From an uncultured Rhodospirillaceae bacterium (GTDB taxonomy: Bacteria > Pseudomonadota > Alphaproteobacteria > CAAGCB01 > CAG-977): 64,000 nt of DNA. The position numbers and the translations under genes are program-made. Positions 4,664-50,171 of the stretch are shown piece after piece (position 1 is the stretch's first letter; every line of letters begins with the position of its first letter). The stretch is from positions 1,158-65,157 of the forward strand of contig URSF01000003.1 in NCBI GenBank assembly GCA_900550445.1, in the 5' to 3' direction. The notes under the pieces were generated by a model. It did not search any database. It saw only the letters and a program-made list of their open reading frames with translations, and had not been told where the DNA came from.

Positions 4664-4684
4664 TTCCCGTCCGATCCCGCTTTA

Positions 4685-5083: not shown

Positions 5084-5153
5084 TTTGGCAATACGACAAG
5101 GCAGTTTAATTTATATTAAGTGTTTATAAAAGCCCTTTTAATTAAAAAGGCTT

Positions 5154-5918: not shown

Positions 5919-5926
5919 CGGTACTC

Positions 5927-6532: not shown

Positions 6533-6537
6533 GAGCT

Positions 6538-7584: not shown

Positions 7585-7593
7585 GCGGTCCTC

Positions 7594-8130: not shown

Positions 8131-8254
8131 TTCAAATCCCCATATTAAATTTCCGTAATTATGTTTGTTATACGCTGTTTTAGTTAATAACAGGTTATAA
8201 GCGAAAATAATTTTTACAGTCTTTTTTTTCAAGAAAAACCCTAAAAATAAAAAT

Positions 8255-8270
8255 TGGCACGCTTTGTGCA
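8255..8270 (+). promoter_or_regulatory. sigma54 (-24/-12) type promoter for flgFGAH
   Basis: TGGCACGCTTTGTGCA compared with the consensus TGGCACG-N4-TTGCW. The GG and GC elements are correctly spaced with one mismatch. It lies about 49 bp upstream of the flgF ATG. Confidence 0.6.
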
Positions 8271-8318
8271 TTACATTAAGCGAAAACAAACAGCTCCGTA
8301 CGGAAACAGGGGGAAAAA

Positions 8319-9059: not shown

Positions 9060-9086
9060 GAATTTATTTTTTAAGGAGTCACTATC

Positions 9087-9878: not shown

Positions 9879-9886
9879 GGAATAAA

Positions 9887-10891: not shown

Positions 10892-10900
10892 AGGGAGGAT

Positions 10901-11671
10901 ATGAATATGAAAAAACGATATCTGCAGAAATTGGCTAAAACGGCTCTGATAACCGTTATTGCCTTAAACGCGTCCGGCTGCGCCTATTTCGGCCGCCTGG
11001 CCGACGTCGGCAAAGCGCCTGAATTTTCAAAAATTCAGAACCCGACAAAGGAAAAAGGCTATACGCCCGTTGACATGCCCATGCCCGAACCGCAGACGCC
11101 GTATGTCAACGCAAATTCGCTGTGGCGGCCGGGATCCAAAGGATTTTTTAAAGATCAGCGCGCTTCGCAGGTCGGCGATATCTTAACCGTTCAAGTGGTT
11201 ATTTCCGATAAAGCTCTTTTAGAAAACAAATCGGAACAAAAACGCGGCGACGATGACGACAGCGTCAGCATCGGCGCTCTGGCCGGCCTGGAAAAATATG
11301 CAGGGAAAATTCTGCCCAGCGGCGTGGACGTTTCCAACCTGTTCAATATTACCAGCAGCCGAGATATCACCGGCGACGGATCAATCGACAGAAATGAAAA
11401 AATCGACGTGACAATGGCCGCCGTCGTCACGCAGATTTTGCCCAACGGCAATCTGGTGATTTCCGGCAAACAGGAAGTCCGCGTCAACTATGAAATGCGC
11501 CAGCTGCACATGACGGGCATCATCAGACGCGAAGACATTTCCACTTTAAACACGATCAAATCGGAAAAAATCGCTGAGCTGCGCGTCGCTTACGGCGGCA
11601 AAGGAACCATCAGCGATGTCCAGCAGCCGCGTTACGGACGGCAAGTTCTGGATATTATCAGTCCGTTTTAA
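10901..11671 (+). CDS. flgH: flagellar L-ring lipoprotein FlgH
   Basis: Lipobox LNASGC, plus SLWRPGSKGFFKDQRASQVGDILTV and GNLVISGKQEVRVNYE, both typical of FlgH. Confidence 0.9.
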   Translation: MNMKKRYLQKLAKTALITVIALNASGCAYFGRLADVGKAPEFSKIQNPTKEKGYTPVDMPMPEPQTPYVNANSLWRPGSKGFFKDQRASQVGDILTVQVVISDKALLENKSEQKRGDDDDSVSIGALAGLEKYAGKILPSGVDVSNLFNITSSRDITGDGSIDRNEKIDVTMAAVVTQILPNGNLVISGKQEVRVNYEMRQLHMTGIIRREDISTLNTIKSEKIAELRVAYGGKGTISDVQQPRYGRQVLDIISPF

Positions 11672-11769
11672 CCGTTTGTGCTCCAAAGGCCGTCCTCCTC
11701 CCTCCCTTTTGGCCTTTGGAGCACTCTTTTCTTTCTTTTCACTCACCCGACTTAACAAGGAGATCTCTC

Positions 11770-12096
11770 ATGACACAAAAAAAACTCACCGTTTCCGAAG
11801 AAGATGCTCTGGCCCTGCTGCGTTCCGCGACCAACATATCGCATGCCCGCCGGACAGGCGATAAAACAGGTCTGACAATTGCTTTAGACGAAAACATGCA
11901 GCTTTGGACCGCCATTCAAACGCTGGTTTCCCGTCAGGATCACCCGCTGAACGAAACAGCTAAAGGCAATCTGATCAAACTGGCAAATTTTGTTGTCGCG
12001 AAAACGATTAAATATGGCTGCGACGCCTGCGACAAAACATTAGATACTTTGGAAAATATGAACCTGCAGATCGCGGAAGGACTGCTGGAACATTAA
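11770..12096 (+). CDS. flaF: flagellar biosynthesis regulator FlaF
   Basis: Start chosen at the ATG at 11770 behind AAGGAG; the track ORF starts at 11716. It shows the FlaF-like pattern ALALLRSA...LDENMQLWTAIQTLV...NLIKLANFVVAKT...LENMNLQIAEGL. Confidence 0.65.
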   Translation: MTQKKLTVSEEDALALLRSATNISHARRTGDKTGLTIALDENMQLWTAIQTLVSRQDHPLNETAKGNLIKLANFVVAKTIKYGCDACDKTLDTLENMNLQIAEGLLEH

Positions 12097-12116
12097 TCCG
12101 CCGCCTTTTTACGCCG

Positions 12117-12143
12117 AACCCCCGTCCGATACGGGGGTTTTTT
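12117..12143 (+). terminator. Rho-independent terminator after flaF
   Basis: cccccg-tccgata-cggggg stem-loop followed by tttttt. Confidence 0.75.
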
Positions 12144-12349
12144 GCGGCAAATTGTCAAAATTCGTCACAATTAATAATCGACAAGAAAAAAAGAACTGAT
12201 AAAACAAAACGTTAAGCCTTTTTTCCCCGAAACGAAAAAGAACCATAATTCCGCCACATTTTTTTTATACCCTGAAAGGGTAAGGAAAATATTTTCCTTT
12301 CGGAGGAGAGGCCGAATAAAAAAACATTTCAGCCTTCTTTGTATACTGA

Positions 12350-12384
12350 ACGGGATAGGTTCCCCCTATCCCGTTTTTTTTTTA
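12350..12384 (+). terminator. plus-strand intrinsic terminator abutting the atpG stop codon
   Basis: 10-bp perfect stem acgggatagg / cctatcccgt with a 5-nt loop, followed by about 10 T on the plus strand. On the minus strand the hairpin is not followed by a U run. Confidence 0.6.
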
Positions 12385-13275
12385 TTTTCTCTTTTGCATA
12401 CGCAGCGCTTCCGCCCCGGAAACAACGTCCAGCAACTCTGTCGTAATATTTTCCTGACGCATTTGCTGATATTCCAGATTCATCGCCTCCAGATTTTCGT
12501 CAATATTCTTTTCCGCAGCCTGCATTGTCGTTAAACGCATGTGGTGTTCCGCCGACAAAGCTTCCGTAATCGCCGTTGACAACTCAATCAGCAGCCGTTC
12601 TTTCAGCAGCGCGGAATAAATCGTCTGCGGCGGCAGAGTATAAGTCGGGAAATTCCGTCCCGGCCAGCCCATTTTTTTCAAACGTTCCAGCCATTCCGTC
12701 CCCAAAGGCATCAGCAGTGTCGAAGTCGGCGAAACGCTGACCCCGCGTTTTTCGCTGTAATAAACATAAACATGCGTAATATGGTTGGTACGCATATATT
12801 CTTCCGCGGTCACCAAAACAGAAGCGGCCGTTTTGCTGACGGCTTTGACGGAATTTGAAATCGGATAACTTTCAACAATATTCCACTGATTGCGCATCAG
12901 CTGCCCGATGATCTGCCGGCCGACGGCGATAAAACCGGTCTGGTTGATCTGAAATCCTTTTTCCGTCAACGATTTTTGCGCAAACCGGACGACTTCGCGA
13001 TTCATTTTACCGACCAACCCCGTATCCGACCCGATTAAAACGGCCAACACCCGCCGGGATTCCGGTTTAACGCGAGGTTCCTTCGGCAATTCCAGAGCCC
13101 CGTTTTTCATCAGCGCCACCGCCCCCAGATTAATCGTGCGTCCGTATTCGATCAAAGACTTTAAAGCCGTATCATATTGAATAATACTGACCGCAGACAG
13201 CGATTTCATCGTCGAAACGATAGAACGCAAATCCTGCGTTGTCTTTATCCGCTTTTGCAGTCCTTCAATATCCAT
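12382..13275 (-). CDS. atpG: N-type ATPase gamma subunit
   Basis: MDIEGLQKRIKTTQDLRSIVSTMKSLSAVSI... and C-terminal ITTELLDVVSGAEAL. It is the last gene of the atpDCQRBEFAG order. Confidence 0.85.
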   Translation of the reverse strand: MDIEGLQKRIKTTQDLRSIVSTMKSLSAVSIIQYDTALKSLIEYGRTINLGAVALMKNGALELPKEPRVKPESRRVLAVLIGSDTGLVGKMNREVVRFAQKSLTEKGFQINQTGFIAVGRQIIGQLMRNQWNIVESYPISNSVKAVSKTAASVLVTAEEYMRTNHITHVYVYYSEKRGVSVSPTSTLLMPLGTEWLERLKKMGWPGRNFPTYTLPPQTIYSALLKERLLIELSTAITEALSAEHHMRLTTMQAAEKNIDENLEAMNLEYQQMRQENITTELLDVVSGAEALRMQKRK

Positions 13276-13283
13276 ACCGTTTC

Positions 13284-14813
13284 CTACACTTGTTTTGCGG
13301 ACAGAACGCGTTCGTTAACCAAAGCTTCCCGAATATCGTCGGCCAGCGCTTTTTTGCGTTCCGGCGACAGCTTTTCACGATGCAGGATCTGTTCCGCCGT
13401 TTCTTTGTGCGTCGTTTTCATCAGCTGAGCAATCACGCGGTAAGCTTTTTCTCTTAATTTATCGGTGACATTATCCAACAGCCCTTCCGTCGTCGCGAAC
13501 AAAACGGCGATTTGTTCCACTACCGGAACCGGAGCGAACTGCTTTTGCTGCATTACGGCGCGAATAGCCCGTCCGCGTTTTAACTGTTTTTCCGTTTCCG
13601 CGTCCAGATGCGACCTGAACTTTGCAAAACTTTCCAATTCTTCAAACTGAGAAAAAGCCAGCTTCAACGGCCCGACCAAAGAACTGTAGGCCGGCAGCTG
13701 CGCATCGCCGCCGACACGCGAAACGGAACGCCCCGTGTCAATGGCAGGCAGGATCCCCTTTTGAAACATCGGCGAAGACAGATAAATCTGACCGTCCGTA
13801 ATGGAAATGATATTTGTCGGAATATAGGCCGAAATATTTTGCGCTTCGGTTTCAACAATCGGCAGAGCCGTCAGCGAACCGCCGCCGAATTCGGGACGCA
13901 GACGCGTTGAACGTTCCAGCAAACGGGAATGAATATAGAAAATATCGCCCGGGAAAGCTTCACGTCCGGGCGGACGGCGCAGCAGCAAAGACAATTCGCG
14001 GTAAGCCCGCGCATGATTCGTCAGATCGTCATAGATCACCAAAACGTCCCGGCCTTTTTCCATAAAGTATTCACCGATTGCCGTCGCCGCATACGGCGCA
14101 ATATACTGCATGCCTGCCGTTTCGTCGCCCGAAGCGGCCACAACGATCGTGTTTTTCATCACATCGTATTTTTTCAGGCTGTCAACCACGCGCGCGATAG
14201 CCGTTCCGCGCTGCGCGATGGCACAGTAAATGCAAATCACGTCCGTATTTTTCTGATTGATGATCGCGTCAACGGCCAATGCCGTTTTTCCCGTCTGCCG
14301 GTCGCCCAAAATCAGTTCGCGTTGACCGCGCCCGATCGGCGTAAAAGAATCAATCGCCTTAATTCCGGTCTGCAGAGGCGTTGAAACCGGCGCGCGGGCC
14401 ATAATCGGATACGCTTCACGTTCGATTTTACGACGGTTAACCGTAACAATACGTCCCGCGCCGTCCAAAGGATTGCCCAGCGGGTCAATTACACGCCCCA
14501 ACAAACGTTCGCCGACGGGAACGTCGACAACACGGCCGGTGCGGTGAACGCGGTCGCCGGCTTTAATTTCGTCCGGCTGATTTAAAAACACAACTCCGAC
14601 GGAATTTTCCGACAATGTAAATGTCATTCCCATGACATTATTCGGGAACATCAGCAATTCTTCCATCTGAACGTTATCCAGACGGGAGACTTCGGCCGTA
14701 CCGCCGGAAACCGAAGACACCGTACTGATTTCTTCGATATTCATTTTGGCGGACTGAAGGTCGATCGTGTCCTGAACAATGCCGAAAACGTCTTTGACTG
14801 CTTCTATTAACAT
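13284..14813 (-). CDS. atpA: N-type ATPase alpha subunit
   Basis: 509 aa with Walker [10 protein letters not shown] and F1-alpha-like sequence throughout ([20 protein letters not shown]). Confidence 0.9.
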
Positions 14814-14831
14814 TTTGTTTCCGTTCTTTTA

Positions 14832-15614
14832 TCAGCTTTCTTCGCGGCTTAAACGCAAAGAAATATTTTCCAGAGCATCGTGCATTTTTGCCGTAAAGGT
14901 ATTCAGATAATCGTCCAGATTCCATGAAACGACGTTTCCGTTTACGGAAAATTCAATGCCGCACAACAAACGCGGGTTAACGTCAAAAACGAACTGCGGA
15001 TTTTCTATTTCCAGAATTTCCGACAACATTTTTTTCAGCCCTTCCTGCGCTTCGGGCGTTAATTCTTCGGAAGTCGAAATCTGCAAAGGAACGTCCTGCG
15101 TATCCGCCGCCAGAAATTTTTTATCTTTCAAAGACAAATCTTCCAGCTGATGTCTGAACACGGAAATAAAGCGATCTTCCAAATCTTCATCAGCCATGCG
15201 TTTAAAAGCCTTGCGGGCGAATTCCAGAAAGTTGGCGACAAGCGTTTGGCGAACCTCGTTAATCATCAGCGCTTTTTCCCGATCCAGCTCCTGCTGCCAC
15301 AGCAGACGTTTTTCCAAAACTTCCGCCTGTGCCTCATGTTCCAGTTCTTTGCGCAGCGTTTCCGCTTCTTCACGGGCTTCTTTTAAAATCTGCGTGCGTT
15401 CGTTATCAATCGCCAGATAACGTTTATTCAGCTCGTCCAGCTTTTTTTCGGCCTCGGCGGCCAGCCCTTCGGCATTTTGAATTTCCCCGGCGATATGTTT
15501 TTCGCGCTTGTCAATCGCGGCCAGCAGAGGCTTGTATAAAAACTTGTACAAAGCCCAGGCCAAAATCGTAAAATTGACGATCTGCGCCAGTATGGTGGTA
15601 AAATCTACAGACAT
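14832..15614 (-). CDS. atpF: N-type ATPase b subunit (long, b/delta-like stalk)
   Basis: N-terminal TM helix plus b-type coiled coil (FTILAWALYKFLYKPLLAAIDKREKHIAGEI...). At 260 aa it carries an extra C-terminal domain. There is no separate delta gene in the operon. Confidence 0.8.
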   Translation of the reverse strand: MSVDFTTILAQIVNFTILAWALYKFLYKPLLAAIDKREKHIAGEIQNAEGLAAEAEKKLDELNKRYLAIDNERTQILKEAREEAETLRKELEHEAQAEVLEKRLLWQQELDREKALMINEVRQTLVANFLEFARKAFKRMADEDLEDRFISVFRHQLEDLSLKDKKFLAADTQDVPLQISTSEELTPEAQEGLKKMLSEILEIENPQFVFDVNPRLLCGIEFSVNGNVVSWNLDDYLNTFTAKMHDALENISLRLSREES

Positions 15615-15654
15615 GCTTCAAATCCTTATCTGTTAGGTGAAGGCCGAAAGGCTT

Positions 15655-15933
15655 TTATTTCGCCGCAGCGCTGACCGCATACTGCCAAAACGGATTTGCA
15701 AACAACAAAATCATGGCAACGACAAAGCAGTAAATGCCGGACGTTTCAATAATTGCCAGAGAAATAAACATCGTACGCGAAATTGATCCGGCTTCGTCAG
15801 GCTGCTGAGCCAGCGAAGTCAGCCCGGACGCGACGGCATAACCTTCCGCCAAACCGGCGGCACTGGCCCCGATGCACAGACAAAAACCTGCGGTAAAAAT
15901 TGAAATGGAACCTAAAATTGCAACTAAATCCAT
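15655..15933 (-). CDS. atpE: N-type ATPase c subunit
   Basis: 92-aa hairpin protein with GLAEGYAVASG in helix 1 and LAIIETSGIYCFVVAMILLFANPF in helix 2. Confidence 0.9.
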   Translation of the reverse strand: MDLVAILGSISIFTAGFCLCIGASAAGLAEGYAVASGLTSLAQQPDEAGSISRTMFISLAIIETSGIYCFVVAMILLFANPFWQYAVSAAAK

Positions 15934-15949
15934 AATACAGTCCTCCTGT

Positions 15950-16675
15950 TTATATTGTTTCGTTTATCGCAGCTTGTTTTTTGTCTTGTGACGAAACAAG
16001 ATTTTCTTCTTCTTCATGAACGGAAGAAATATACATCAGCGCCAGCATCGCAAAAATATAAGCCTGAATCATACCGGTAAAAAGCCCCAGCACCTGCATG
16101 GGCAGAGGCAGAATGAAAGGAACGAGCATTAAACAAATCGATCCGATGATAACACCCGATAAAACGTTGCCGAACAAACGGACGGCCATAGCCCCTGTCG
16201 AGGTCAGCTCGCTTAAAATATTGAACGGCAACATAGCCGGGGACGGTTCCAGATATTTTTTCAAATATCTTTTCAGTCCCGCGTTTTTAATTCCGAAAAA
16301 CGGAATCCCCAGCAAAACCATCAAAGCCAGAGCCGCCGTCGTCGACAAAGAAGCCGTCGGCGTTTTGAATTCCGGAATTAAAGTCAAAAGGTTGCATGTT
16401 AAAATAAACAAAAACAACGTTCCGATAAACGGCAGATACGTCATCGGATTGCCCGACGTCATTTCATGAATCTGGCCGTGAATAGCCTTAACCAGCACTT
16501 CCATGCCTGTCTGCCAGTGGGAAACTTTGTTACCCGTTTTTAAATGTCTGGTCGCCAGCCAGGACACCAGCATTAAAATCACCATAACGATCCACGTTGA
16601 CGCAATCGTCCAGTTCACGGGAATGTTCCAGTACGGCAGATAAAAGGCTATTTGTTCATCATACAATTCCAACAT
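15950..16675 (-). CDS. atpB: N-type ATPase a subunit
   Basis: 241 aa, polytopic, with the conserved stator Arg context MAVRLFGNVLSG. Confidence 0.85.
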   Translation of the reverse strand: MLELYDEQIAFYLPYWNIPVNWTIASTWIVMVILMLVSWLATRHLKTGNKVSHWQTGMEVLVKAIHGQIHEMTSGNPMTYLPFIGTLFLFILTCNLLTLIPEFKTPTASLSTTAALALMVLLGIPFFGIKNAGLKRYLKKYLEPSPAMLPFNILSELTSTGAMAVRLFGNVLSGVIIGSICLMLVPFILPLPMQVLGLFTGMIQAYIFAMLALMYISSVHEEEENLVSSQDKKQAAINETI

Positions 16676-16681
16676 GCCGGT

Positions 16682-16984
16682 TTACTCCTTTAACGCGCTT
16701 TTTTTCAGCATTCTTTGTTTTACAATACGGACGATCAGAAATCTGGCCGTCAGCAGCCCCGCGGCGGCGCCCAGCAGCATCTGCGAATCATGATGCGCCA
16801 GTAAAAACAACCCGCCGCATAAAACGACAGAACGGAACAGCCAGCTGAAAAACAAAAACAGCTTTTTATGTTCAATATTTCTAATCCGCCGCACAGACCA
16901 CCACAGCCCGCCGAAATAAAGCCCCCCCAGCAACGCGCCCGCGGCCAGGCCGGTTATAACGGAAAAAGGCATCACTTCCGACAT
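16682..16984 (-). CDS. atpR: N-ATPase accessory membrane protein AtpR
   Basis: 100-aa protein with three TM helices (GLYFGGLWWSVRR...). It lies between the atpQ and atpB positions, as in N-ATPase operons. Confidence 0.7.
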   Translation of the reverse strand: MSEVMPFSVITGLAAGALLGGLYFGGLWWSVRRIRNIEHKKLFLFFSWLFRSVVLCGGLFLLAHHDSQMLLGAAAGLLTARFLIVRIVKQRMLKKSALKE

Positions 16985-17436
16985 TATTCTTTTTCCTCCC
17001 CGTCTTTTTCCTCTTCGGCAAATTCAGCAGCCCTGCCGGACGGGTCTTCGTCTTCTTCCCGAGACAAAGCCTGCGCCTGTTCCACCAAAGCGTTGCGGCG
17101 GTCCTGTTCTTTTTGTGCCCGGTCAATGCCTTCGCGTTTCAGCCATTGCCAGGCGCTGAAAACACCGATCATGAATCCCAACAGCAAAAAGTTCAAAGTC
17201 CAGGAAACAGAGGCAACTTTATAATGCGCATCAAGCCATCTGCCCAGCAGCACCCCCAAAAAAGTGGGAATCGGGATATTCCACCCCAGCGCCCCCAGAA
17301 AAGCCAGTCCCATGGCCGGTTTAAAAGCCTTTTCGTCCGTTTTGTTAACCAGATGCCGTGAAGCGCGCTTGGCCAGCCTTTGCGCCAAAGCGTTTTCCGA
17401 TTTTGTCTGAACCTTTTGAGATGTGTTAAGATCCAT
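16984..17436 (-). CDS. atpQ: N-ATPase AtpQ (AtpI/AtpZ-like) membrane protein
   Basis: 150 aa with an AtpZ/AtpI-like core (LAFLGALGWNIPIPTFLGVLLGRWLD). It follows atpC as in N-ATPase operons. The C-terminal tail is acidic. Confidence 0.65.
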   Translation of the reverse strand: MDLNTSQKVQTKSENALAQRLAKRASRHLVNKTDEKAFKPAMGLAFLGALGWNIPIPTFLGVLLGRWLDAHYKVASVSWTLNFLLLGFMIGVFSAWQWLKREGIDRAQKEQDRRNALVEQAQALSREEDEDPSGRAAEFAEEEKDGEEKE

Positions 17437-17438
17437 AA

Positions 17439-19327
<1,889 letters not shown>

Positions 19328-19473
19328 CTATTAAAAAAGTAACTTTTTTATTTCAAAAAAAAAAGAATTTTTTTTGTTTTTCTCAAAAAAAATACATAAA
19401 AAACAACTGTATTCCACGACAACTGATGAAAATATCCGTTCAAAAAATCAAACAGTGATTGACTTTCTGTCCG

Positions 19474-19510
19474 AAAAAACCCGTCATTAAAAAATGACGG
19501 GCGTTTTTTT
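19474..19510. terminator. bidirectional terminator hairpin after the AAA+ gene
   Basis: cccgtcatt-aaaa-aatgacggg, flanked by an A run upstream and a T run downstream. Confidence 0.75.
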
Positions 19511-19514
19511 CGTA

Positions 19515-21680
19515 TTATTGTTCCGGCGTCACAACCGGAGGCGGTACGACGTCGGGAACCGGTTCCGTTCCGTCCGCCGTGGGAATCGCCGGCGGCGTTT
19601 CGGAAACGGGTACATCGGGAATCGAAGGCGGCGTTTCGGGCGCCGGAGGTATTTCGGACATTTCCTTTGCCATGGCCGCGGCCGGCATTTTCGGCATTCC
19701 CAGCCCCTTGCCCAGCGTTGATTTAAATCCTTTGATGACGGGGACTTTAATCAGCCGCGGTGCAGGCGTACTTTCCGCCGGCGCGCTGCCCTGCTGTTTA
19801 GCCGCTTCCAAAGCCGCGCGTTTCCATGCCGGCAGATCGGCATATTCGTCGCCGGTTTCATTTAACTTAAATGTCGGCGGAGGCGGCGGACGATCGTCAA
19901 CGCCGTCGTCCATTTTAGTTTCTACCGTTACGGCCTCTTCCAGCTGCTTATTCTGTTCTTCGGGTTTCAGAACGACGATTTCAACGCCTTTTTTATCCTT
20001 CGGACGGATAATTTTAATTAAATCTTCCCCGCTTACTTTGTCATACATCATCAATACTGACAGCGGGTTTTCAATATGGTGCTGAATCAGACGCTTGATT
20101 TCACGCACACCGTTCTTGGCAATAAAGACTTCATCGGCAAACCATTTGCGCGCTTCCAGACTTAATTCCGCGCGCAGACCGACCGCTTTGGCGCGTTTAA
20201 CGAACTTATTTAAATGAATGTCGACAATCGCCAACAGGTTTTCTTCCGCCAGACCGTGGAAAGGAATAATGTCGTCAATACGGGCCAGAAATTCCGGACG
20301 TAAATTTTTGCGCAGAAATTCCATACGCTGATAACGCGGCAAATTCGCCCCCAAGTTTGACGTCATAATGACAATCGTGTTTCTGAAATCGACCGTAACG
20401 CCTTTTCCGTCGGTTAAGCGCCCTTCGTCCAGCAACTGCAACATCAGGTTTAAAATTTCGCTGTGCGCTTTTTCCAATTCGTCGAACAAAACCACCTGAT
20501 ACGGCCGCAAACGAACGGCTTCCGTCAGCACGCCGCCCTGTTCGAACCCCGGCGTTCCGGGCGGAGGCCCCAACAAACGCGCCACTGACGATTTTTCCAT
20601 ATATTCCGACATATCCAAACGCAACAAAGCCGTTTCGTCGTCAAACATAAATTCGGACAAAGCCTTTGCCAGTTCCGTTTTACCGACGCCGGTCGTCCCG
20701 ATAAACAGAAACGTTCCCAAAGGACGGTTCGGATCCTGCAATCCCGACTTCATACGCCTGACCGCGCCGGAAATCACCGAAATCGCTTCGGGCTGGCCGA
20801 TCACGCGCCGGCCGATGAAATTTTCCAGATCAATCAGTTTCTGCTTATCTTCCGATCCGACCTTGTCCATCGGAATCCCCGTCCAGAACGATACGATATT
20901 GGCAATATGCTGTTCGGTTAAGACATTATCCTTTGTCGTTCCTTCGTCCAAATCCATCATCAGCCCGGTCGCGGCTTCGTCCAACAAATCCAGCGCTTTT
21001 TCCGGAAACAGGCGCGATTTGACATAACGCGCCGACATGGAAACCGCTTTTTGCAAAATTTCATCGGGGATTTTTACGCCGTACTTTTCTTCCAGACGCG
21101 GCGCAATCCCGCGTAAGATATCCGTCGCTTCGGCCGGCGTCGGTTCTTCGATATACATTGTCTGCAGACAGCTCATCAAATCGGGATCCGTTTCCACATA
21201 CATTTTGTACGCGTTTAATTCCGCTTCAACAATGCACTGAATACCGCCGTCCAAAACTTTCGGTTTTAAAAAGCGGGGGATTTCATGATTGCCGTTCGGC
21301 GTCATCGCCAAAAAGCCCAAATCGTTGATAAACAGGATTTTCTGCCCTTTTGCCGCCTGAAGTTCCTGAAACGCCTCTTTTAAATGGTCTTCGTATTCCG
21401 CCTGTGTTTTGGAATCAATCATCATCGTGGCGATATCAACGCCGACGACCGTGCGTCCTTTTAATTTCGGCGGACAGTCCCCGGCCGCCAAAGCCGCGGC
21501 AACGCCGATTACGATCGACGTTTTGCCTAACCCCGTCTGCCCCAGCAGCATCGGGTTGCTTTTCATGTCGCGCAATAAAATATGCATCACGCGCCGGATT
21601 TCTTTTTTACGGCCGACAATTTGTTTTAATTCGCCGTTTTTCAGCTTTTCGGCATAATCAATAATATACTTGCTGGCCAT
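19515..21680 (-). CDS. atypical two-ring Clp/Hsp100-like AAA+ protein: no N-domain, no M-domain, degenerate D1, Pro-rich C-terminal tail
   Basis: D1 has GQTGLGKTS but ILFINDLG where a Walker B ILFIDELH is expected. D2 is canonical (FLFIGTTGVGKTELAKAL, VVLFDELEKAH, IVIMTSNLG, RPEFLARID). The last ~150 aa are low complexity (RPPPPPTF..., ETPPSIPDVPVSETPPAIP...VVPPPVVTPEQ). Confidence 0.75.
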   Translation of the reverse strand: MASKYIIDYAEKLKNGELKQIVGRKKEIRRVMHILLRDMKSNPMLLGQTGLGKTSIVIGVAAALAAGDCPPKLKGRTVVGVDIATMMIDSKTQAEYEDHLKEAFQELQAAKGQKILFINDLGFLAMTPNGNHEIPRFLKPKVLDGGIQCIVEAELNAYKMYVETDPDLMSCLQTMYIEEPTPAEATDILRGIAPRLEEKYGVKIPDEILQKAVSMSARYVKSRLFPEKALDLLDEAATGLMMDLDEGTTKDNVLTEQHIANIVSFWTGIPMDKVGSEDKQKLIDLENFIGRRVIGQPEAISVISGAVRRMKSGLQDPNRPLGTFLFIGTTGVGKTELAKALSEFMFDDETALLRLDMSEYMEKSSVARLLGPPPGTPGFEQGGVLTEAVRLRPYQVVLFDELEKAHSEILNLMLQLLDEGRLTDGKGVTVDFRNTIVIMTSNLGANLPRYQRMEFLRKNLRPEFLARIDDIIPFHGLAEENLLAIVDIHLNKFVKRAKAVGLRAELSLEARKWFADEVFIAKNGVREIKRLIQHHIENPLSVLMMYDKVSGEDLIKIIRPKDKKGVEIVVLKPEEQNKQLEEAVTVETKMDDGVDDRPPPPPTFKLNETGDEYADLPAWKRAALEAAKQQGSAPAESTPAPRLIKVPVIKGFKSTLGKGLGMPKMPAAAMAKEMSEIPPAPETPPSIPDVPVSETPPAIPTADGTEPVPDVVPPPVVTPEQ

Positions 21681-39372: not shown

Positions 39373-39570
39373 TTATCTGTGCAGCATCGCTTCTGATAAA
39401 TGGGAAGATACTCTGTCCGCTTCCGGTAATTTTTTATCGGGATCCCGCAAAATTGAATTGCGCAGTTTTTGATTCACCGCCGAATTTTCAGGCGTTCCGC
39501 CCAATTCAACGGTAACGGCGGCATTTTTTGCAAAACGTTTCACCAATGACTTTTCACTTAATTTCGTCAT
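39373..39570 (-). CDS. small hypothetical ORF coupled to the 385-aa orphan gene
   Basis: 65 aa. Its ATG overlaps the upstream stop (ATGA). No recognisable motifs. Confidence 0.35.
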   Translation of the reverse strand: MTKLSEKSLVKRFAKNAAVTVELGGTPENSAVNQKLRNSILRDPDKKLPEADRVSSHLSEAMLHR

Positions 39571-40724
39571 CTGACTTTATATCCTTTTAAGACCTTGGCA
39601 AACATCTGGTCAGACATCTTTGATTTATCAGAAGCTGTCTTTGCCGGTGTCTCCATCTTACGTTCAGGTTTTCCAAATAAAGTTTTCTGAACATTATCCA
39701 ACTGTTTTTGCAATGGAACTCTTTTAGATTCTTCGTGATTCCTCTCGGCAGATTTAGCCCAAGCCTTTGCATCGGAAGCGATATCGGATATCGATCTGGG
39801 TTCTCCGTCTTTATAGACATCTTCCAATACGTCGTTGTAAACGGACCGATTTTTTTTCATTGATTCGACCGCCTTGGCCATAGCCTGATCCAACTGCTTT
39901 TCCGCATTAAACGCAAAAGTGTGGCTTTTCAATTTTGCTCCGATCCTTTTAAAGAACGACAAGCCTTTTGTAACGCTCGGAGATCCTTTCTTTAAATTGT
40001 ATTCACTATCTTTCGCTTTGACGTCGCCGGAAGGCAAATACATCTTATCCACAACGGAATCGCCATGATATCCTTTAACGCCGGCATGCGCGCGCAAAGT
40101 CTTCATCACATGAATCTCTGCCCGGCGGGCATCTTTCGGATGTTGGACTTTATACGCATGCATCGCATCGGCAACCTCCTGTAAAACATCACTGCATTCC
40201 GCACGCGCCTTGGCTGTTTCTTTCGTCCTATACGATTCCGTGTACTTATAGTGATTGTTCGTTTGATCATTGCGCACGGAAGCGTTTTCCGCAATCTCGG
40301 AAATTCTGGTAATGCCATTATACGTCGTACTTTCTTTTATGGCTTCCGCATAATATTGAGGATTGCGCTTGGCATCTTTTTGAACACGTTCCAAAGCATC
40401 ATTTAAAGCGGCGTAGTCTTTTGACCAGACGGCTTTAATTTTTGCCCCGAGCTTATTAAAAAAGGGACGCCCTTTGTTAATATCCGGTTTTTTTTCGCCC
40501 AAAGACCTGAACGCCTGACGTTGCTTATAATTCATACCGTTTTCGTATTCCAGATCATAAGAACCGCTTTTACTGCCTTCAATCGCAGCCTTCAACACGC
40601 TTTGAGCGTATGCGTTAACACGCAAAAAATCTTTTGGATTTTCTTCTTTATACCGTTCAAGACATCTGTTCAAATAGCTTAAATTGTCTGCGGTATTTTT
40701 AATCTCTTCCTTATAATCAGCCAT
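39567..40724 (-). CDS. orphan Lys-rich soluble protein made of two ~170-aa tandem repeats
   Basis: Internal duplication: ERYKEENPKDFLRVNAYAQSVLKA...KGRPFFNKLGAKIKAVWS...RVQKDAKRNPQYY compared with HAYKVQHPKDARRAEIHVMKTLRA...KGLSFFKRIGAKLKSHTF...AVESMKKNRSVY. The gene is AT-rich and lies next to tRNA-Ser. Confidence 0.55.
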   Translation of the reverse strand: MADYKEEIKNTADNLSYLNRCLERYKEENPKDFLRVNAYAQSVLKAAIEGSKSGSYDLEYENGMNYKQRQAFRSLGEKKPDINKGRPFFNKLGAKIKAVWSKDYAALNDALERVQKDAKRNPQYYAEAIKESTTYNGITRISEIAENASVRNDQTNNHYKYTESYRTKETAKARAECSDVLQEVADAMHAYKVQHPKDARRAEIHVMKTLRAHAGVKGYHGDSVVDKMYLPSGDVKAKDSEYNLKKGSPSVTKGLSFFKRIGAKLKSHTFAFNAEKQLDQAMAKAVESMKKNRSVYNDVLEDVYKDGEPRSISDIASDAKAWAKSAERNHEESKRVPLQKQLDNVQKTLFGKPERKMETPAKTASDKSKMSDQMFAKVLKGYKVR

Positions 40725-45638: not shown

Positions 45639-46649
45639 TTACCTGCCGCGCCGGGCCGCCATCAGCTTGGCCGCTGCCGCCGCAGACACGGACGCGTTTG
45701 AATTTGCCGGTTTTTGTTTTTGCGCTTTCAATTCCTCGCGCAAAGGCAAAGACTGATACGTTTTATCCTCTTCCAGATTAAATCCGTTTTTGCGGATCAT
45801 AAAGGCCTGCCGACATTTTTTCAAAGTCGATTCCGTAATCGCCAGTTTTTCGGGCTGTTCCAAAACGTCCGGATTATCCGACCAATAACATTTTCCGGCG
45901 GGATCGCGGCAGACCGTTTCGACAATCTGTCTGGAAGTAATCGGCTTGACATAATACGTTTCCGGGTGATTGCGTTCGTCCCAGCTATAACTTAATCCGC
46001 CGTCGCGCAAATATCCGTATTCATAACGCAGCACCATTTCTTCGTTTTGATACCACCCTTCAAAACCGCCCTGCAACATTTTATGAGTGAACGGCGCTTT
46101 TTCATCGCTGCAAGCCGCCATAAATCCTTTAGCGATCAGCGGAACGTCCGCTTCAAATTCATTCCACGGACCTTCGACGCCGTTTTGCTTCATTTCATAG
46201 CAAACGGCGCAGGACGCCGCTTCGGCGTCGGCTTCTTTCGCTCTGTGCGACATGACCGCCCCTTTAAACGTATAATGATTGCAGTCGCTGTCGATACCGT
46301 TGGAAAACTGCTGCACGTGACGCGCTTCATGCCCGATAATCTGCATCAGCTGATTGTCCGAAAAACAACAGTTCAAAGATAATATCTTTGTTGATTCGCT
46401 GACCATTCCGCCCCAGCCGCAGGCGCCGAACATAGCGATCTGGTAGCCTTCTTTGGCGACGTTTTCCAACAGTTCCCGGCCCAAAGGCGAATTTTCGGCC
46501 ACCGTATTGATAATATGAATAGCCCGCCGCTTATTGTTTCCGTAACAACGGCTGATATCAATCGGGATCAGCAGCTCTTCACATTGATCCGCGTTTTCAG
46601 GTTTCCGGGTGCCGGAAGCGCCGCTTAAAGTTTCAGTCATAAAAAACAT
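45639..46649 (-). CDS. HExxH zincin-like protein, paralog 1, ...RGR C-terminus
   Basis: IIGHEARHVQQ followed about 30 aa later by HRAKEADAEAASCAVCYEM. It ends AAAAAKLMAARRGR and has no signal peptide. Confidence 0.6.
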   Translation of the reverse strand: MFFMTETLSGASGTRKPENADQCEELLIPIDISRCYGNNKRRAIHIINTVAENSPLGRELLENVAKEGYQIAMFGACGWGGMVSESTKILSLNCCFSDNQLMQIIGHEARHVQQFSNGIDSDCNHYTFKGAVMSHRAKEADAEAASCAVCYEMKQNGVEGPWNEFEADVPLIAKGFMAACSDEKAPFTHKMLQGGFEGWYQNEEMVLRYEYGYLRDGGLSYSWDERNHPETYYVKPITSRQIVETVCRDPAGKCYWSDNPDVLEQPEKLAITESTLKKCRQAFMIRKNGFNLEEDKTYQSLPLREELKAQKQKPANSNASVSAAAAAKLMAARRGR

Positions 46650-46813
46650 CGCCTTTGTCGTTTATTTAAAATTTGCTTTATTCTATACAAACATCTTTCC
46701 TCAGGCAAAGGAAAAACATCGCCCGGCGGCTATATTTTCCCGCCATAAAGCCGTCTTGCCCCCATAAAAAAAAGCTGGCACTTTCAAATAAAACAAAACG
46801 GCAAGGAGCAGAT

Positions 46814-47722
46814 ATGTTCAAAAAACTTTACCAGTTTATCCGGCGTTTTACACTGCCGATCATCGTTTTTTTGTTTCTGGTTTACTGCTTTTCCGACAAA
46901 AGCCTCTGGACCGATTTCAACGGTTACGTCGCTTCTTTCAGAGTCCCGATCCGCCAGGGCGTTTTGGCCGTTATGCTTTTTTTATCCATAACGTATATTC
47001 TGCGCCTGATTCGCGACGCTTTCATGCCGCGCCTGTTCAACCATTTGCATTTTAACAATAATACCGAAAGTTCGGCAACGTCAATCGTCGGTTATATTTC
47101 CGTTTTAATCGCCGGACTGATTTCCCTGTCGGTTTTAGGCGTAAACCTGAAAAGCCTCGGTTTGCTGATCAGCGCGTTGTCGGTCGGTCTGGGCTTCGGC
47201 CTGCAGCACGTGGTGAATAATTTCATTTCCGGAATTTTAATTTTATTTGAACGTCCCTTCCGGATCGGCGACTGGATCGTTCTTAATGACAAAGAAGGCA
47301 TCGTGCGTAAAATCAATATCCGGTCAACCGAACTGGAAACATTTGACAAAGCGCTGATTATCATTCCGAACGCGGATATTATTTCCGGCGTATTGACAAA
47401 CTGGACGTTGACGGATTCCAAAGGCCGGCTGCTCATCAATGTCGGCGTCGGATACGATTCCGATTTGGAAAAAGTGCTGCAACTGGCCGTCAGCATAATT
47501 AAAAACGATCCTCGGATTCTTTCGGATCCGCCGGCCTCCGCGATCGTCACTTCATTTGACGACAGCAGCATCGAGATTCAACTGCGGTGTTATATCAGCA
47601 ACGTTATGCAGCGTTCCGTTGTCAAAAGCGACCTGATGATCCGGCTGCAAAAAACATTTAACGATAACGGAATAGATATTCCTTTTCCGCAAAGAGTCGT
47701 ACAAATGCTGCCCGAAAAATAA
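46814..47722 (+). CDS. MscS-family mechanosensitive channel
   Basis: Start set at the ATG at 46814 behind AAGGAG. Core motif is GLGFGLQHVVNNFISGILILFERPFRIGDWI. Confidence 0.85.
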   Translation: MFKKLYQFIRRFTLPIIVFLFLVYCFSDKSLWTDFNGYVASFRVPIRQGVLAVMLFLSITYILRLIRDAFMPRLFNHLHFNNNTESSATSIVGYISVLIAGLISLSVLGVNLKSLGLLISALSVGLGFGLQHVVNNFISGILILFERPFRIGDWIVLNDKEGIVRKINIRSTELETFDKALIIIPNADIISGVLTNWTLTDSKGRLLINVGVGYDSDLEKVLQLAVSIIKNDPRILSDPPASAIVTSFDDSSIEIQLRCYISNVMQRSVVKSDLMIRLQKTFNDNGIDIPFPQRVVQMLPEK

Positions 47723-47746
47723 AGACCGGATTTTCCGGTCTTTTTA
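47721..47746. terminator. bidirectional terminator between mscS and HExxH paralog 2
   Basis: agaccgga-ttt-tccggtct, flanked by A-rich and T-rich runs. Confidence 0.7.
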
Positions 47747-47747
47747 T

Positions 47748-48647
47748 TTAACGTCCTCTGATCGCCGCGGCCGCTTTTAATAAGACGGGCGAAGGCGCTT
47801 TTTGTTTTTGTTCGTTTCTGACCGGCAGCTTTGCAACCGATTTATCACCGGTCTGCGCCATCATTTCCTTGCCTTTATCCGACACGGCCATATTTTCGGC
47901 GCGGTCAAAAAACGCTGCGGAAATATACGGCTGACCGTTATGCAGACAAACCGACGCCAGCTGTTCGTTGGAAACCGCCGCTTCCTTTTTCACCGAATTA
48001 AAATCTTTCTTTTTTTGTTCCGAATTCATGCGGATCTGCGCCACATACTGCTTTTCATAAGCTTCCTGATAATTCTTATAACCGTACCACGCCTGAAAAG
48101 ACGCACGCATCGCTTTTGTTTCATCGCCGGATTTTTCCATTTCCCCGACATAAGCCCGCATCATCGGCGTTTCCATTTCTTTTTCAAAAACCTGCGGATA
48201 TTCGTCTTTCATCTGATAAGCGAAAGCCGCCTGATGCGCGCAGGCGTCCGCTTCCAGCGCGCGGTTCAATTTAATGAAATCATACGCGTTCAGACTGCCG
48301 ATAAAATCCGTTGTTTTGTCTTGGCCGCTGATTTTATTGATCCGTTCGACCTGACGGATATGCGTACATTCATGAATTAAAATCGGCGCCAGCTCCATCT
48401 GACGGCGGTAAGAATCCAGCCGCACGACCTTGCGGTCATAATCGCACGCGCCATTAACACCGAACATGGCTTCGTACATATAGGAATATCCCTGAAAGGC
48501 CACGGCATTCATTGTTTCCTGCCCTTTGGGAAACTGATAGGCGATATTCAGCAGACTGGTGAAATTTTCACGATCCGCCCCGCCCAAAGCATAAATCGAA
48601 TTATTAAGCTTTGCAAAGCATTCAAAATTGGATTTTTGATCCGGCAT
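47748..48647 (-). CDS. HExxH zincin-like protein, paralog 2, ...RGR C-terminus
   Basis: ILIHECTHIRQ ... NRALEADACAHQAAFAYQM. It ends LLKAAAAIRGR and starts 1 nt after the stop of paralog 3. Confidence 0.6.
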   Translation of the reverse strand: MPDQKSNFECFAKLNNSIYALGGADRENFTSLLNIAYQFPKGQETMNAVAFQGYSYMYEAMFGVNGACDYDRKVVRLDSYRRQMELAPILIHECTHIRQVERINKISGQDKTTDFIGSLNAYDFIKLNRALEADACAHQAAFAYQMKDEYPQVFEKEMETPMMRAYVGEMEKSGDETKAMRASFQAWYGYKNYQEAYEKQYVAQIRMNSEQKKKDFNSVKKEAAVSNEQLASVCLHNGQPYISAAFFDRAENMAVSDKGKEMMAQTGDKSVAKLPVRNEQKQKAPSPVLLKAAAAIRGR

Positions 48648-48648
48648 T

Positions 48649-49647
48649 TTATCGTCCCCTTTGATTTATCGCTGCCGACACGACAGCCTGTTTATTTCCG
48701 GATTTTTCCGGCGGAGCCGTCAATTCCCCTTTTTTATTGCGCAGACACATCGACCAAACGGATCGGTCAGGCTTTGCCCCCGGAACGGACGCGGCATAAT
48801 CGTCGATCATGGCGGAAATTTCTTTTTGATCCGACTGTTTAATGGAAAACGGCCGGCCGCTGTTTAAATCATCTGCGGTCATATACGGCTTTCCTTTATA
48901 GCAGCACATTTTCAAAACGTCCGCGACGGGATATTCCTTTGAAAAGCAGTCGGGATCCTTTTCTTTTTTGGCATATTCGGCGATCCGTTTAAACCCGTCC
49001 TTGTGCCATTTGTCGTAATAGTCGCGGTAATAGTCGCATTCATACCATGCGGCGAAACAGGCCTGCATCGCTTTTCTTTCGTCATGGGACTTTTCCATTT
49101 CCCCGACATAAGCGTGAAACATCGGCAATCCGGTTTCCTTTGCCTTTTCATAAACGTTCGGCATGATCTCCTTGCATTCGTAAACGAAAGCCATTTCATG
49201 CGCGACGGCGTCAGCCTCTATCGCGCGGTGCATTCTGAGCGACGAAGCGACTTGCGTATGTTCGTAATTCGGCCTGTTTTCGCTTTCCCTGGAATACTGA
49301 ATGGCGTGGCGGCCCTCGTGCACGGCGGTTTGAAGCATATATTCAAACCCGAACGACGGGTTGATCACGACTTTTTTCTGATTCGGCGCGCAGAAGCCGC
49401 CGAAATTTCCTTTTTCAAACGCGAAAGAATACCCCAGCTTTGACAGCGTCGTCAGCGTTTCGCGGCCTTTTTTGGTTTTCATTACGGAATCAATGATTTC
49501 TTCAAACAAAATTTCTTCTTTTACCGCGTTTTTCGCATCAGAGGCCGTAAAAGCTTTTGTCAAAACCTTTTTTGCCTTTTGCGCCGCGCGGCCGCAGGCA
49601 TACTTTTTGTACGATTTCTGCGTAAATCCGGCAACCGTTTCAGCCAT
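48649..49647 (-). CDS. HExxH zincin-like protein, paralog 3, ...RGR C-terminus
   Basis: TAVHEGRHAIQ ... HRAIEADAVAHEMAFVYEC. It shares AYVGEMEKS..(D/E)..KAM.A.F.AWY with paralog 2 and ends VVSAAINQRGR. Confidence 0.6.
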   Translation of the reverse strand: MAETVAGFTQKSYKKYACGRAAQKAKKVLTKAFTASDAKNAVKEEILFEEIIDSVMKTKKGRETLTTLSKLGYSFAFEKGNFGGFCAPNQKKVVINPSFGFEYMLQTAVHEGRHAIQYSRESENRPNYEHTQVASSLRMHRAIEADAVAHEMAFVYECKEIMPNVYEKAKETGLPMFHAYVGEMEKSHDERKAMQACFAAWYECDYYRDYYDKWHKDGFKRIAEYAKKEKDPDCFSKEYPVADVLKMCCYKGKPYMTADDLNSGRPFSIKQSDQKEISAMIDDYAASVPGAKPDRSVWSMCLRNKKGELTAPPEKSGNKQAVVSAAINQRGR

Positions 49648-49688
49648 AAGAATCCCCTTTTCTTCAAAGAACGGTATCAGGATATCAT

Positions 49689-50171
49689 TTATTGGACAGT
49701 TGTCAATTCATTTTTGTCCAGATTTTCTCTGCCTATTTGTTCTGCACACGCTTTTTTCAAAGCCTCCGCCCCGTTTTCGGAAACAAGAACGCCGTTGACA
49801 AAAATCCGGCCTTCTTTGATTTCAACTCTGGCGACGGGAATAAATCCGAATTCCAGATCGGAATTCCAAAATCCGAAATCTTTTTTCAAATCCAGAAAAA
49901 CCGGCAGAGTCAGCGTCGTCAGATCAGGCGAGGTTACGGGAACGCCGCCGTTTATATCCGCCGGCGCGACACGATTTCCCGTTGCACTTAACGTTGAATC
50001 CGTTCCCAAATCCGCCGGCGCGACGGACCGTCCGTCAGCGGAAACACCGGGAACATAATCCGCACCGGGCACGGCCAACCTGTAACAATCCTGCGGCGAT
50101 ATTCTGATTTGAACGGGTTCCGCCCGCAAAACGGCCGGAAACAAACAAAGAAAAATCAAAATCCCTATCAT
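49689..50171 (-). CDS. hypothetical secreted protein
   Basis: 160 aa with a signal peptide (MIGILIFLCLFPAVLRAEP) and a repeated V(A)PAD(L/I) motif. No family recognised. Confidence 0.5.
   Translation of the reverse strand: MIGILIFLCLFPAVLRAEPVQIRISPQDCYRLAVPGADYVPGVSADGRSVAPADLGTDSTLSATGNRVAPADINGGVPVTSPDLTTLTLPVFLDLKKDFGFWNSDLEFGFIPVARVEIKEGRIFVNGVLVSENGAEALKKACAEQIGRENLDKNELTTVQ

Follow-up and report, generated by a model that had tools for sequence, protein, structure and literature searches.

DUF6782 proteins of an uncultured alphaproteobacterium: paralogous predicted zinc metallopeptidases with an arginine-terminated tail

We analysed 64,000 nucleotides of contig URSF01000003.1 from an uncultured Rhodospirillaceae bacterium (this whole stretch is called the window), in which three related genes, named p1, p2 and p3, lie on either side of a gene for a mechanosensitive channel. 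All three products belong to the uncharacterised Pfam family DUF6782 and are predicted to be zinc metallopeptidases with a gluzincin-like core. They end in a short basic tail whose last residue is arginine, and we discuss below what this tail may do. The genes and their signature motifs are as follows (ORF, open reading frame; aa, amino acids).

45639-46649, minus strand: p1, 336-aa ORF, DUF6782 putative zinc metallopeptidase, between ruvX and mscS; the sole p1-type copy
47748-48647, minus strand: p2, 299 aa, DUF6782 paralog, second gene of the p3-p2 pair
48649-49647, minus strand: p3, 332 aa, DUF6782 paralog, first gene of the p3-p2 pair
46308-46331, minus strand: HEARHVQQ of p1, residues 107-114 (H107, E108, H111, Q114), in model helix 98-116
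46218-46244, minus strand: RAKEADAEA of p1, the "glutamate helix" motif, residues 136-144, in model helix 128-155, directly after the HExxH helix
48351-48374, minus strand: HECTHIRQ of p2, residues 92-99
48237-48263, minus strand: RALEADACA of p2, residues 129-137
49297-49320, minus strand: HEGRHAIQ of p3, residues 110-117
49201-49227, minus strand: RAIEADAVA of p3, residues 141-149

Sequence comparison confirms that p1, p2 and p3 are genuine paralogs, with a similarity far above chance: in blastp, p2 matches p3 with E 4e-34 (31% identity), and p1 matches either of them with E 1e-12 to 2e-14 (23-31% identity). No fourth copy was found within the 64-kb window by tblastn. A preliminary description of this DNA, made from the sequence alone, had reported a collinear set of motifs in the three ORFs, and all of these were located: G-Y (G68/Y69 in p1), HExxHxxQ, RAxEADAxA and F-x-x-W-Y. 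The further motif AYVGEMEKS..D/E.KAM, attributed there to the second and third paralogs, occurs in p2 and p3 only. The same description had placed these two genes in tandem, 1 nt apart, and the first paralog on the far side of mscS; position 48648 alone separates the p3 stop from the p2 start, and the middle gene matches Pfam MS_channel_2nd and MS_channel_3rd. The p1 protein is probably 333 rather than 336 residues long, starting at Met4 (coordinate 46640), because its orthologs begin at the equivalent residue (MTETL...).

Pfam model PF20573 (DUF6782, putative metallopeptidase family) matches p1 with E 1.5e-40, p2 with E 2e-35 and p3 with E 4.9e-40 (139.4, 122.6 and 137.7 bits, respectively; the gathering score is 27 bits), covering profile positions 17-239, 27-239 and 6-239 of 241. 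By this profile, p1-p3 are members of a catalogued but uncharacterised family. A literature search for DUF6782 or PF20573 found no paper, and the family has no assigned function or solved structure; a search of the literature on RF32 gut Alphaproteobacteria likewise returned nothing relevant. That the preliminary description could not name the family is explained by this lack of literature. The Pfam model spans only the first ~240-255 residues of the proteins, and a conserved D-x-S...R segment, a linker and the arginine-terminated tail lie outside it. A word-seeded search yielded 83 relatives, all of which are annotated PF20573 except one, a 261-aa fragment; the named ones among them come from "Alphaproteobacteria bacterium" metagenome-assembled genomes. 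In an exhaustive hidden Markov model (HMM) search, E was <= 1e-3 for 1,329 clusters (50% identity) and <= 1e-30 for 229.

Residue conservation was assessed in an alignment of 120 diverse members, each of which contains the PF20573 domain, with a mean column identity of 16%, using p1 numbering. H107, E108, H111, E139, A140 and Y209 are invariant in all 120 sequences, and G81, Q114, R136, D141, A142, F196, W199, Y255 and the last residue, R336, are conserved in at least 90%. The histidines and glutamates singled out by the preliminary description (both HExxH histidines, the glutamate between them and the glutamate further downstream) are therefore among the invariant positions. When each of the 120 members was scanned singly against Pfam, the recurrent secondary matches, nearly all of them sub-threshold, were to zincin families only: DUF3920 in 30 members, SprT-like in 24, M78 in 21 (nearly all below the cut-off, best E 1.5e-05), M91 in 15 (sub-threshold), the eCIS core domain in five and M76 in four. 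Profile searches thus place p1-p3 in a putative metallopeptidase family, and no non-protease family appeared among the Pfam matches of p1-p3 or of the 120 members. NCBIfam has no family model for p1-p3. A PDB sequence search with a profile of the three proteins gave only a chance match to a histidine kinase (E 0.33), and in PHROGs the only match for p1-p3 was a weak one in the zincin core, with the phage family "minor head protein and DNA pilot" (E 1.5e-4).

AlphaFold2 models were obtained for p1 (predicted local distance difference test score, pLDDT, 90.3; predicted template modelling score, pTM, 0.85) and p2 (pLDDT 90.7, pTM 0.89). Both models are confident from about residue 20-30 up to ~20-25 residues before the C-terminus, and both contain three short strands, a long helix bearing HExxH, a second long helix bearing EADA, and an all-helical C-terminal half. 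In the p1 model, strands 70-74, 81-84 and 89-93 precede the HExxH helix (98-116), and the p2 model is alike. E139 lies on helix 128-155, 28 residues after H111, and the invariant tyrosine, Y209, is located in the all-helical C-terminal domain.

We used Foldseek to compare the p1 and p2 models with the PDB and to search the predicted viral structures of BFVD. The best PDB matches were selecase, jannalysin and abylysin, with probabilities of 0.93-1.0 over ~72-78 columns and an rmsd of ~3 Å, followed by IrrE/PprI, anthrax lethal factor, PPEP-1, Wss1 and M1 aminopeptidases. No PDB match was better than E 0.1, and none extended beyond the catalytic core. Among the viral structures, only small zincin cores were matched (SprT-like, IrrE-like, PolyVal metallopeptidase and "lethal factor"), with nothing at E <= 0.001. 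About two-thirds of the protein, outside the catalytic core, has no counterpart in the libraries searched.

In the 120-member alignment and in the p1 and p2 models, a conserved HExxH is situated on a helix that follows a β-sheet, as in zincins. The preliminary description had compared HExxH and the downstream glutamate with a gluzincin arrangement. This view is supported by the invariance of E139 and by the fold searches, in which two confident models match the catalytic cores of zincins or gluzincins only. The models thus support a gluzincin arrangement for the predicted catalytic core of p1-p3, so that the first observation is confirmed and its cautious interpretation supported. We infer from sequence and models that p1-p3 are zinc metallopeptidases, with metal binding and proteolysis as predicted properties. 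The catalytic residues of p1 can be predicted from the residue roles in anthrax lethal factor: H107, H111 and E139, the EADA glutamate, would be the zinc ligands; E108, the HExxH glutamate, would act as the general base that activates a water molecule; and Y209 may assist catalysis by stabilising the transition state, as a tyrosine does in lethal factor and other gluzincins. With such a site, p1-p3 would be zinc endopeptidases.

None of the gluzincin-type families compared here accommodates these proteins. An analogy with thermolysin had been drawn, which holds for the arrangement alone: there is no match to an M4 profile (Pfam, E up to 1), and whereas M4 enzymes carry a glutamate-helix motif NExxSD 20 residues after HExxH, the motif here is RAxEADA at a spacing of 28 residues. 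The minigluzincins (selecase, 4QHF; proabylysin, 4JIU; projannalysin, 4JIX) provide the best core matches and share the sheet, the HExxH helix and the ligand helix. However, they total only ~105-110 aa, as against 300-336 aa for p1-p3, which are thus three times larger; the structural match is not significant (query-normalised TM score 0.15-0.20, E >= 0.18), and there is no relationship at the sequence level. The M78 family (ImmA/IrrE/PprI) resembles DUF6782 in having, ~27 residues after HExxH, a helix containing a glutamate (E-x-E-A-N, which holds the ligand positions of IrrE, compared with E-A-D-A), and the likeness extends to the weak profile matches of 21 of the 120 members and to fold matches with IrrE/PprI (3DTE, 3DTI, 8SLM, 8SLN). 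Yet p1-p3 themselves have no M78 match above the curated cut-off, DUF6782 lacks a GAF-like domain, and no helix-turn-helix repressor gene, the M78 partner, adjoins any array in the loci examined. M78 genes are usually single copies in prophages or stress regulons and do not form arrays. Anthrax lethal factor and PPEP-1 (M34) and NleD (M91) are secreted or injected bacterial proteases with catalytic sets of HExxH, Glu and Tyr. DUF6782 is similar to them in its fold matches to lethal factor and PPEP-1 and in the sub-threshold M91 matches of 15 of the 120 members, but the fold matches are weak (E > 0.1) and confined to the core, and the accessory domains and delivery routes differ. In their arrangement p1-p3 are gluzincin-like. 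They do not belong to M4, M78, M91, M34 or the minigluzincins, since any profile match to these is either missing or below threshold and the structural similarity is limited to ~75 core residues.

DUF6782 genes occur as arrays in related genomes. Scanning one genome per species with a profile of p3 orthologs, a procedure biased towards p3-type relatives, gave 16 loci, all of them from uncultured Alphaproteobacteria. Their sources include the human gut (HGM isolates; UMGS1574, labelled uncultured Rhodospirillaceae) and the rumen of roe deer, water buffalo and sheep; further loci come from metagenome assemblies of which UBA6411 and the BRZ series are examples. The conserved backbone is nuoN – birA – rnj – orf160 – [DUF6782 array] – mscS – (p1-type) – ruvX – (yhhQ) – gatCAB, and two to five DUF6782 copies are found at the rnj...ruvX site in 15 related loci, gut and rumen genomes among them. 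The flanking genes encode RNase J and RuvX, as judged from the similarity of the window ORFs and from the Pfam domains of the orthologs in locus L022. The family had been described as inserted between rnj and ruvX, genes that are otherwise core. The site and the core character of the neighbours were borne out by the 15 related loci, but the insertion is not of DUF6782 genes alone, as orf160 also lies between rnj and p3. Copy numbers at individual loci (numbered L001 onwards) are listed below; the last four entries (L015, L018, L019 and L017) are from other lineages, some of which have much larger arrays.

Two genes, one p3-type and one p2-type: L001, L004, L005, L009, L010
Two genes, both p3-type: L014
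Three genes: L007, L011, L022
Four genes: L003, L012, L013
p1-type copy besides p3- and p2-type copies: window, L006, L008
mscS absent at the site: L008, L022
At least seven copies in 13.8 kb: L015
Ten genes in 21 kb, beside rpsU and near malQ: L018 (GCA_965315935.1), 2358-20088
Six genes, beside rpsU: L019
Three genes: L017

The fourth copy in L012 and L013 is p3-like and was found by tblastn; it is not in the motif-filtered ORF list. The p3-type orthologs in L001-L014 are 50-96% identical and the p2-type orthologs, present in most related loci, are 57-85% identical, while p1-type orthologs occur only in L006 and L008. Overall, the paralog types are kept across species at 50-96% identity, comparable to birA, ruvX and mscS. 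Because each type is retained at an identity like that of its neighbours, sequence comparison indicates that the duplications that produced p1, p2 and p3 are old and that the copies are under purifying selection. GC content is 0.43-0.51 in intervals across p1-p3 and 0.37-0.57 in the intervals around them; composition therefore shows no sign of a recent foreign origin. A tblastn search with p1 of 72,556 plasmids found no DUF6782 gene, and a plasmid-borne or conjugation-linked origin is therefore not supported.

The variation in copy number and in accessory neighbours (mscS, p1) at a fixed site would suit a role of the arrays in defence, in which the paralogs, each with its own target, would act against phages or mobile elements by abortive infection and the arrays would be variable hot spots. 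A zincin protease that acts in abortive infection, Lit, is known, and in L017 (2857-7285) the array is bordered by a type II CRISPR-Cas locus (Cas9, Cas1, Cas2) and by a gene for a restriction-like PLD/DEAD helicase. However, this adjacency is seen in one locus only; the equivalent sites in L018 and L019 have neither the CRISPR-Cas locus nor the PLD/helicase gene. PADLOC returned no meaningful match (only DpdA for p1, E 0.02, 11.7 bits over 30 residues), no integrase or other mark of a mobile element was found, the family is absent from the plasmids searched, and the paralog types are kept in synteny across many species, unlike patchy defence genes. We consider a defence function very unlikely.

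Longer relatives are of three kinds: proteins with two fused domains, proteins in which an active domain is accompanied by degenerate modules, and a 1301-aa repeat protein. In the second kind (739-744 aa, from the large arrays), degenerate domain copies without HExxH lie on both sides of the active one. The 1301-aa protein, encoded in L022 (16330-20235, plus strand) by an ORF that is uncalled in the source record, combines an N-terminus resembling a coiled coil with DUF6782 at residues 778-980 and proline-rich PPPPPR/TATNN repeats; a stretch of N breaks the repeat region. Its combination of the domain with PPPPPR repeats is an effector-like architecture. Fused domains were considered as a clue to function, but the long relatives consist mostly of duplicated or degenerate DUF6782 modules. 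The HExxH-less modules indicate that the fold can serve non-catalytically, and one could suppose that DUF6782 proteins in general are inactive zincin-fold scaffolds or binding proteins, or else hydrolases of a non-peptide substrate. We regard this as highly improbable, as every catalytic position is invariant in 120 sequences of 16% column identity, which points to selection on catalysis in the stand-alone proteins.

Three aspects of DUF6782 go beyond its catalogue entry: it has an arginine-terminated tail, its arrays have expanded on a large scale in uncultured Alphaproteobacteria, and other leaderless families may share the tail. The preliminary description does not mention this tail. The tails of the window proteins are encoded at the following positions.

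45642-45683, minus strand: p1 tail AAAAAKLMAARRGR, ending in Arg-COOH; tail pLDDT 53-66
47751-47792, minus strand: p2 tail SPVLLKAAAAIRGR; pLDDT ~50, modelled as a free helix (287-296)
48652-48693, minus strand: p3 tail KQAVVSAAINQRGR

In all three proteins the folded part is followed by a flexible linker of variable length, a helix of ~10 small hydrophobic or alanine residues, a few basic residues and the chain end (...AAKLMAARRGR in p1, ...LLKAAAAIRGR in p2, ...VVSAAINQRGR in p3). The tail comprises ~12 residues, the final ones being [KR]-[GS]-Arg. Among 141 diverse representatives, the last residue is arginine in 115 (82%); Gly or Ser predominates at position -2, and Lys or Arg at positions -3 and -4. 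The mean net charge of the last 15 residues is +3.3, compared with an overall value of 0.07 per 15 residues. Array members have retained the tail with hardly an exception. At the other end of p1-p3, direct reading revealed no N-terminal signal peptide or hydrophobic segment, and no Sec or Tat signal. In the p1 and p2 models the tail is a free helix of low confidence (pLDDT ~50-66), and therefore appears not to be packed on the core. The tail helices are rich in alanine; their mean hydrophobicity is low, and so is the hydrophobic moment (0.09-0.18 for p1-p3). For a ribosome-probing tail like those of ArfB and SmpB, ~3 positive charges in the last 15 residues are few, and a reading of the terminal arginine as a eukaryotic C-end-rule (neuropilin-binding) signal would be speculative.

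The position of arginine as the very last residue is most simply explained if the side chain and the α-carboxylate are recognised together. This observation is best accounted for by the main rival to the reading that we favour below, in which p1-p3 would be zinc proteases of the cytoplasm, autoinhibited by the tail as a latch that mimics a product, with the terminal arginine and its carboxylate in the S1 pocket and at the zinc. Activation would then occur by displacement or removal of the tail, and the P1 preference would be Arg. There is a precedent in proabylysin, whose active site is regulated by a C-terminal tail that enters the cleft, the last residue contacting the zinc (PMC5557861); the minigluzincins are also the closest structural cores to DUF6782, and the flexible linker would allow the tail to reach the cleft. 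However, the DUF6782 tail is not predicted to dock: neither AlphaFold2 model places it on the core, as judged from pLDDT and secondary structure as a proxy, which is not decisive and, since the models contain no metal, weak evidence from two paralogs. A latch would also leave unexplained the expansion into arrays and the similar tails, described next, of two unrelated families that are not zincins. On balance we think it unlikely that the tail is a latch.

A scan for Arg-ending proteins in the window showed that two leaderless proteins of no assigned function end like DUF6782 tails. They are listed here with the paralog of the first.

35808-36539, plus strand: 243-aa protein ending ...VETVIANIARGR, in a tandem pair with 35056-35793
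35056-35793, plus strand: 245-aa paralog, without a signal peptide or Pfam match
39567-40724, minus strand: 385-aa Lys-rich protein without a Pfam match, ending ...FAKVLKGYKVR

Both proteins of the tandem pair have a His...'EKNC(A/S)TVA' pattern and neither has a signal peptide; some of their relatives contain DUF4105 (PF13387). This DUF4105-like family has a conserved C-terminal amphipathic helix and an arginine that is often 1-3 residues from the end. The 385-aa protein contains an internal repeat (GRPFFNKLGAKIKA... / GLSFFKRIGAKLKS...) and is syntenic downstream of gatB in L004 and L005. Seven of its nine relatives end in ...VLKGYKGR, and those that are 47-49% identical end in ...RVLKGVSR or ...RVLKGMSR. 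We scored these C-termini with a 14-column position-specific scoring matrix (PSSM) derived from DUF6782 tails, taking the C-termini of 551 non-family ORFs as the null.

Null (551 non-family ORFs): mean score -7.4, 95th percentile 3.5, 99th percentile 8.4
DUF6782 itself: mean score 9.3
385-aa family: mean score 8.9, nine of nine above the null 95th percentile
DUF4105-like family: mean score -0.2, 30% above the null 95th percentile

A [KR][GS]R end occurs in only 3 of the 551 non-family ORFs.

The reading we favour, to which we assign a probability of about 0.4, is that p1-p3 are translocated or exported zinc proteases with a C-terminal recognition tag. Three features suggest a tag that would be read in trans: there is no Sec or Tat signal, the C-terminal tail is charged and undocked, and similar tails are present on unrelated leaderless proteins. 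The tandem arrays into which the family has expanded consist of divergent copies, which suggests that the paralogs differ in substrate. The tag would most likely be read by a machinery for export or translocation that recognises C-terminal signals, for which the type IV coupling proteins are the closest precedent. Export or translocation is favoured because the proteins are leaderless, because the tag would be carried by unrelated families, and because the substrates of VirB/VirD4 (type IVA) secretion systems are likewise leaderless and are recognised by short positive C-termini, a cluster of positive residues at the C-terminus being a functional translocation signal (PMC3297438). DUF6782 differs from these substrates in that no type IV secretion system (T4SS) genes were found in the window or in 23 loci examined and no BID-like domain is present, and the likeness is no more than a resemblance; a positive C-terminus as seen here (+3.3 in the last 15 residues, Arg end in 82%) is not specific to T4SS substrates. 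The R-x-R ending is similar to the Arg-rich consensus of Agrobacterium, and the Bep effectors of Bartonella form tandem arrays of paralogs.

A number of observations weigh against export. Secretion-system genes are absent from the window and the 23 loci, and no secretion or partner genes were found beside the arrays in L009, L016-L019, L021 and L022. The DUF6782 genes sit amid housekeeping genes, and the conservation of paralog types across species, like that of birA and ruvX, differs from what a rapid arms race would produce. VirB/D4 signals are not known to need arginine as the very last residue. The resemblance between tails of different families was recognised only after the fact. The 385-aa family has little depth, with only nine close relatives, the DUF4105-like tails match only partly and often have a shifted arginine, and housekeeping proteins such as RuvX and MalQ also reach moderate PSSM scores. 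Finally, the protease activity and the metal site of p1-p3 are themselves predictions from sequence and models.

The housekeeping, operon-like context of the genes and the lack of secretion genes nearby would suit an intracellular function, in which the proteases act inside the producer and the tail is a generic targeting element: an amphipathic helix with a basic end that binds the membrane, a motif that docks onto a cellular hub, or a C-terminal degron by which enzymes that could do harm are kept scarce. A globular domain followed by a variable linker and a short terminal helix is the layout of tethered linear motifs such as the C-terminal peptide of FtsZ and the membrane-targeting sequence of MinD. 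However, the low hydrophobicity and hydrophobic moment of the p1-p3 tails are weak for membrane binding. Neither membrane helices nor the known bacterial degrons (ssrA-type LAA, MuA-type basic tails) are known to need a terminal arginine, and ten paralogs in 21 kb would be unusual for a regulatory protease. We rate intracellular targeting as rather improbable; both this role and defence fit less of the evidence.

The export reading can be extended to a broader and more doubtful proposal. The Arg-COOH tail, with its Ala-rich or hydrophobic helix and [KR]-[GS]-Arg end, would be an undescribed sorting tag in uncultured gut and environmental Alphaproteobacteria that directs a repertoire of leaderless proteins out of the cell or into other cells; the DUF6782 zincins, with at least ten paralogs, would be its largest cargo, and the 35056-36539 pair and the 39567-40724 protein would share it. 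If the tail is instead a latch of the active site, DUF6782 would show on a large scale how zymogens can be controlled by a product mimic. The ~1,300 clusters without assigned function, structure or publication are concentrated in uncultured Alphaproteobacteria, the relatives recovered through p3-type similarity coming mainly from human gut and rumen, and in some genomes DUF6782 is among the most expanded gene families in the loci examined. Should the proteins be active proteases that are delivered out of the cell, they would be effector candidates of a gut bacterium about which little is known, and the arginine-terminated tail would provide a simple sequence handle for listing the other exported proteins of that organism.

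The remaining features around the three genes are as follows.

46673-47722, plus strand: mscS-type mechanosensitive channel gene, separating p1 from p2 and p3; not a family member
46708-46680, minus strand: promoter-like site in the divergent mscS/p1 intergenic region
47721-47743, both strands: bidirectional terminator-like hairpin between the converging mscS and p2, with a 10-bp stem and a T run each way (consensus scan)
49679-49706, minus strand: putative promoter-like site TTGACA-16-TATCCT with extended TG, upstream of p3 and inside the 3' end of orf160 (consensus scan, which does not show function)
49689-50171, minus strand: orf160, a conserved 160-aa ORF with a signal-peptide-like N-terminus, between rnj and p3

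The mscS ORF as listed begins with a TTG; the first plausible ATG (MFKKLYQF...) comes ~47 codons later, near 46814, and is probably the real start, which would leave a divergent intergenic region of ~160 bp between mscS and p1. The promoter-like site before p3 and the terminator-like hairpin after p2 fit a p3-p2 bicistron. In related genomes orf160 always stands between rnj and the array, as in L001 and L003-L011 (40-90% identity). Searches of Pfam, NCBIfam and PADLOC gave no match for it, and its best PHROG match (E 0.27) is not significant.

Two products with cysteine-rich repeats resemble eukaryotic surface repeat proteins. One, of 455 aa, is encoded next to the array in L009 (10528-11895) and has nine ephrin-receptor-like and TNFR-like Cys-rich repeats; the other, of 584 aa, is encoded in the window (33042-34796, plus strand) and has a signal peptide and Cys-rich repeats.

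Elsewhere in the window, genes assigned by eye from N-terminal sequences and lengths make up an ATP synthase operon (12382-19303, minus strand), apparently in the order beta, epsilon, two small membrane ORFs (150 and 100 aa), a, c, b, alpha, gamma, an arrangement known from N-type (atpDCQRBEFAG) ATPases. A flagellar cluster at 5154-11671, also assigned by eye, contains FliM-like, FliL-like, FlgF, FlgG, FlgA and FlgH-like genes; the organism is probably motile.

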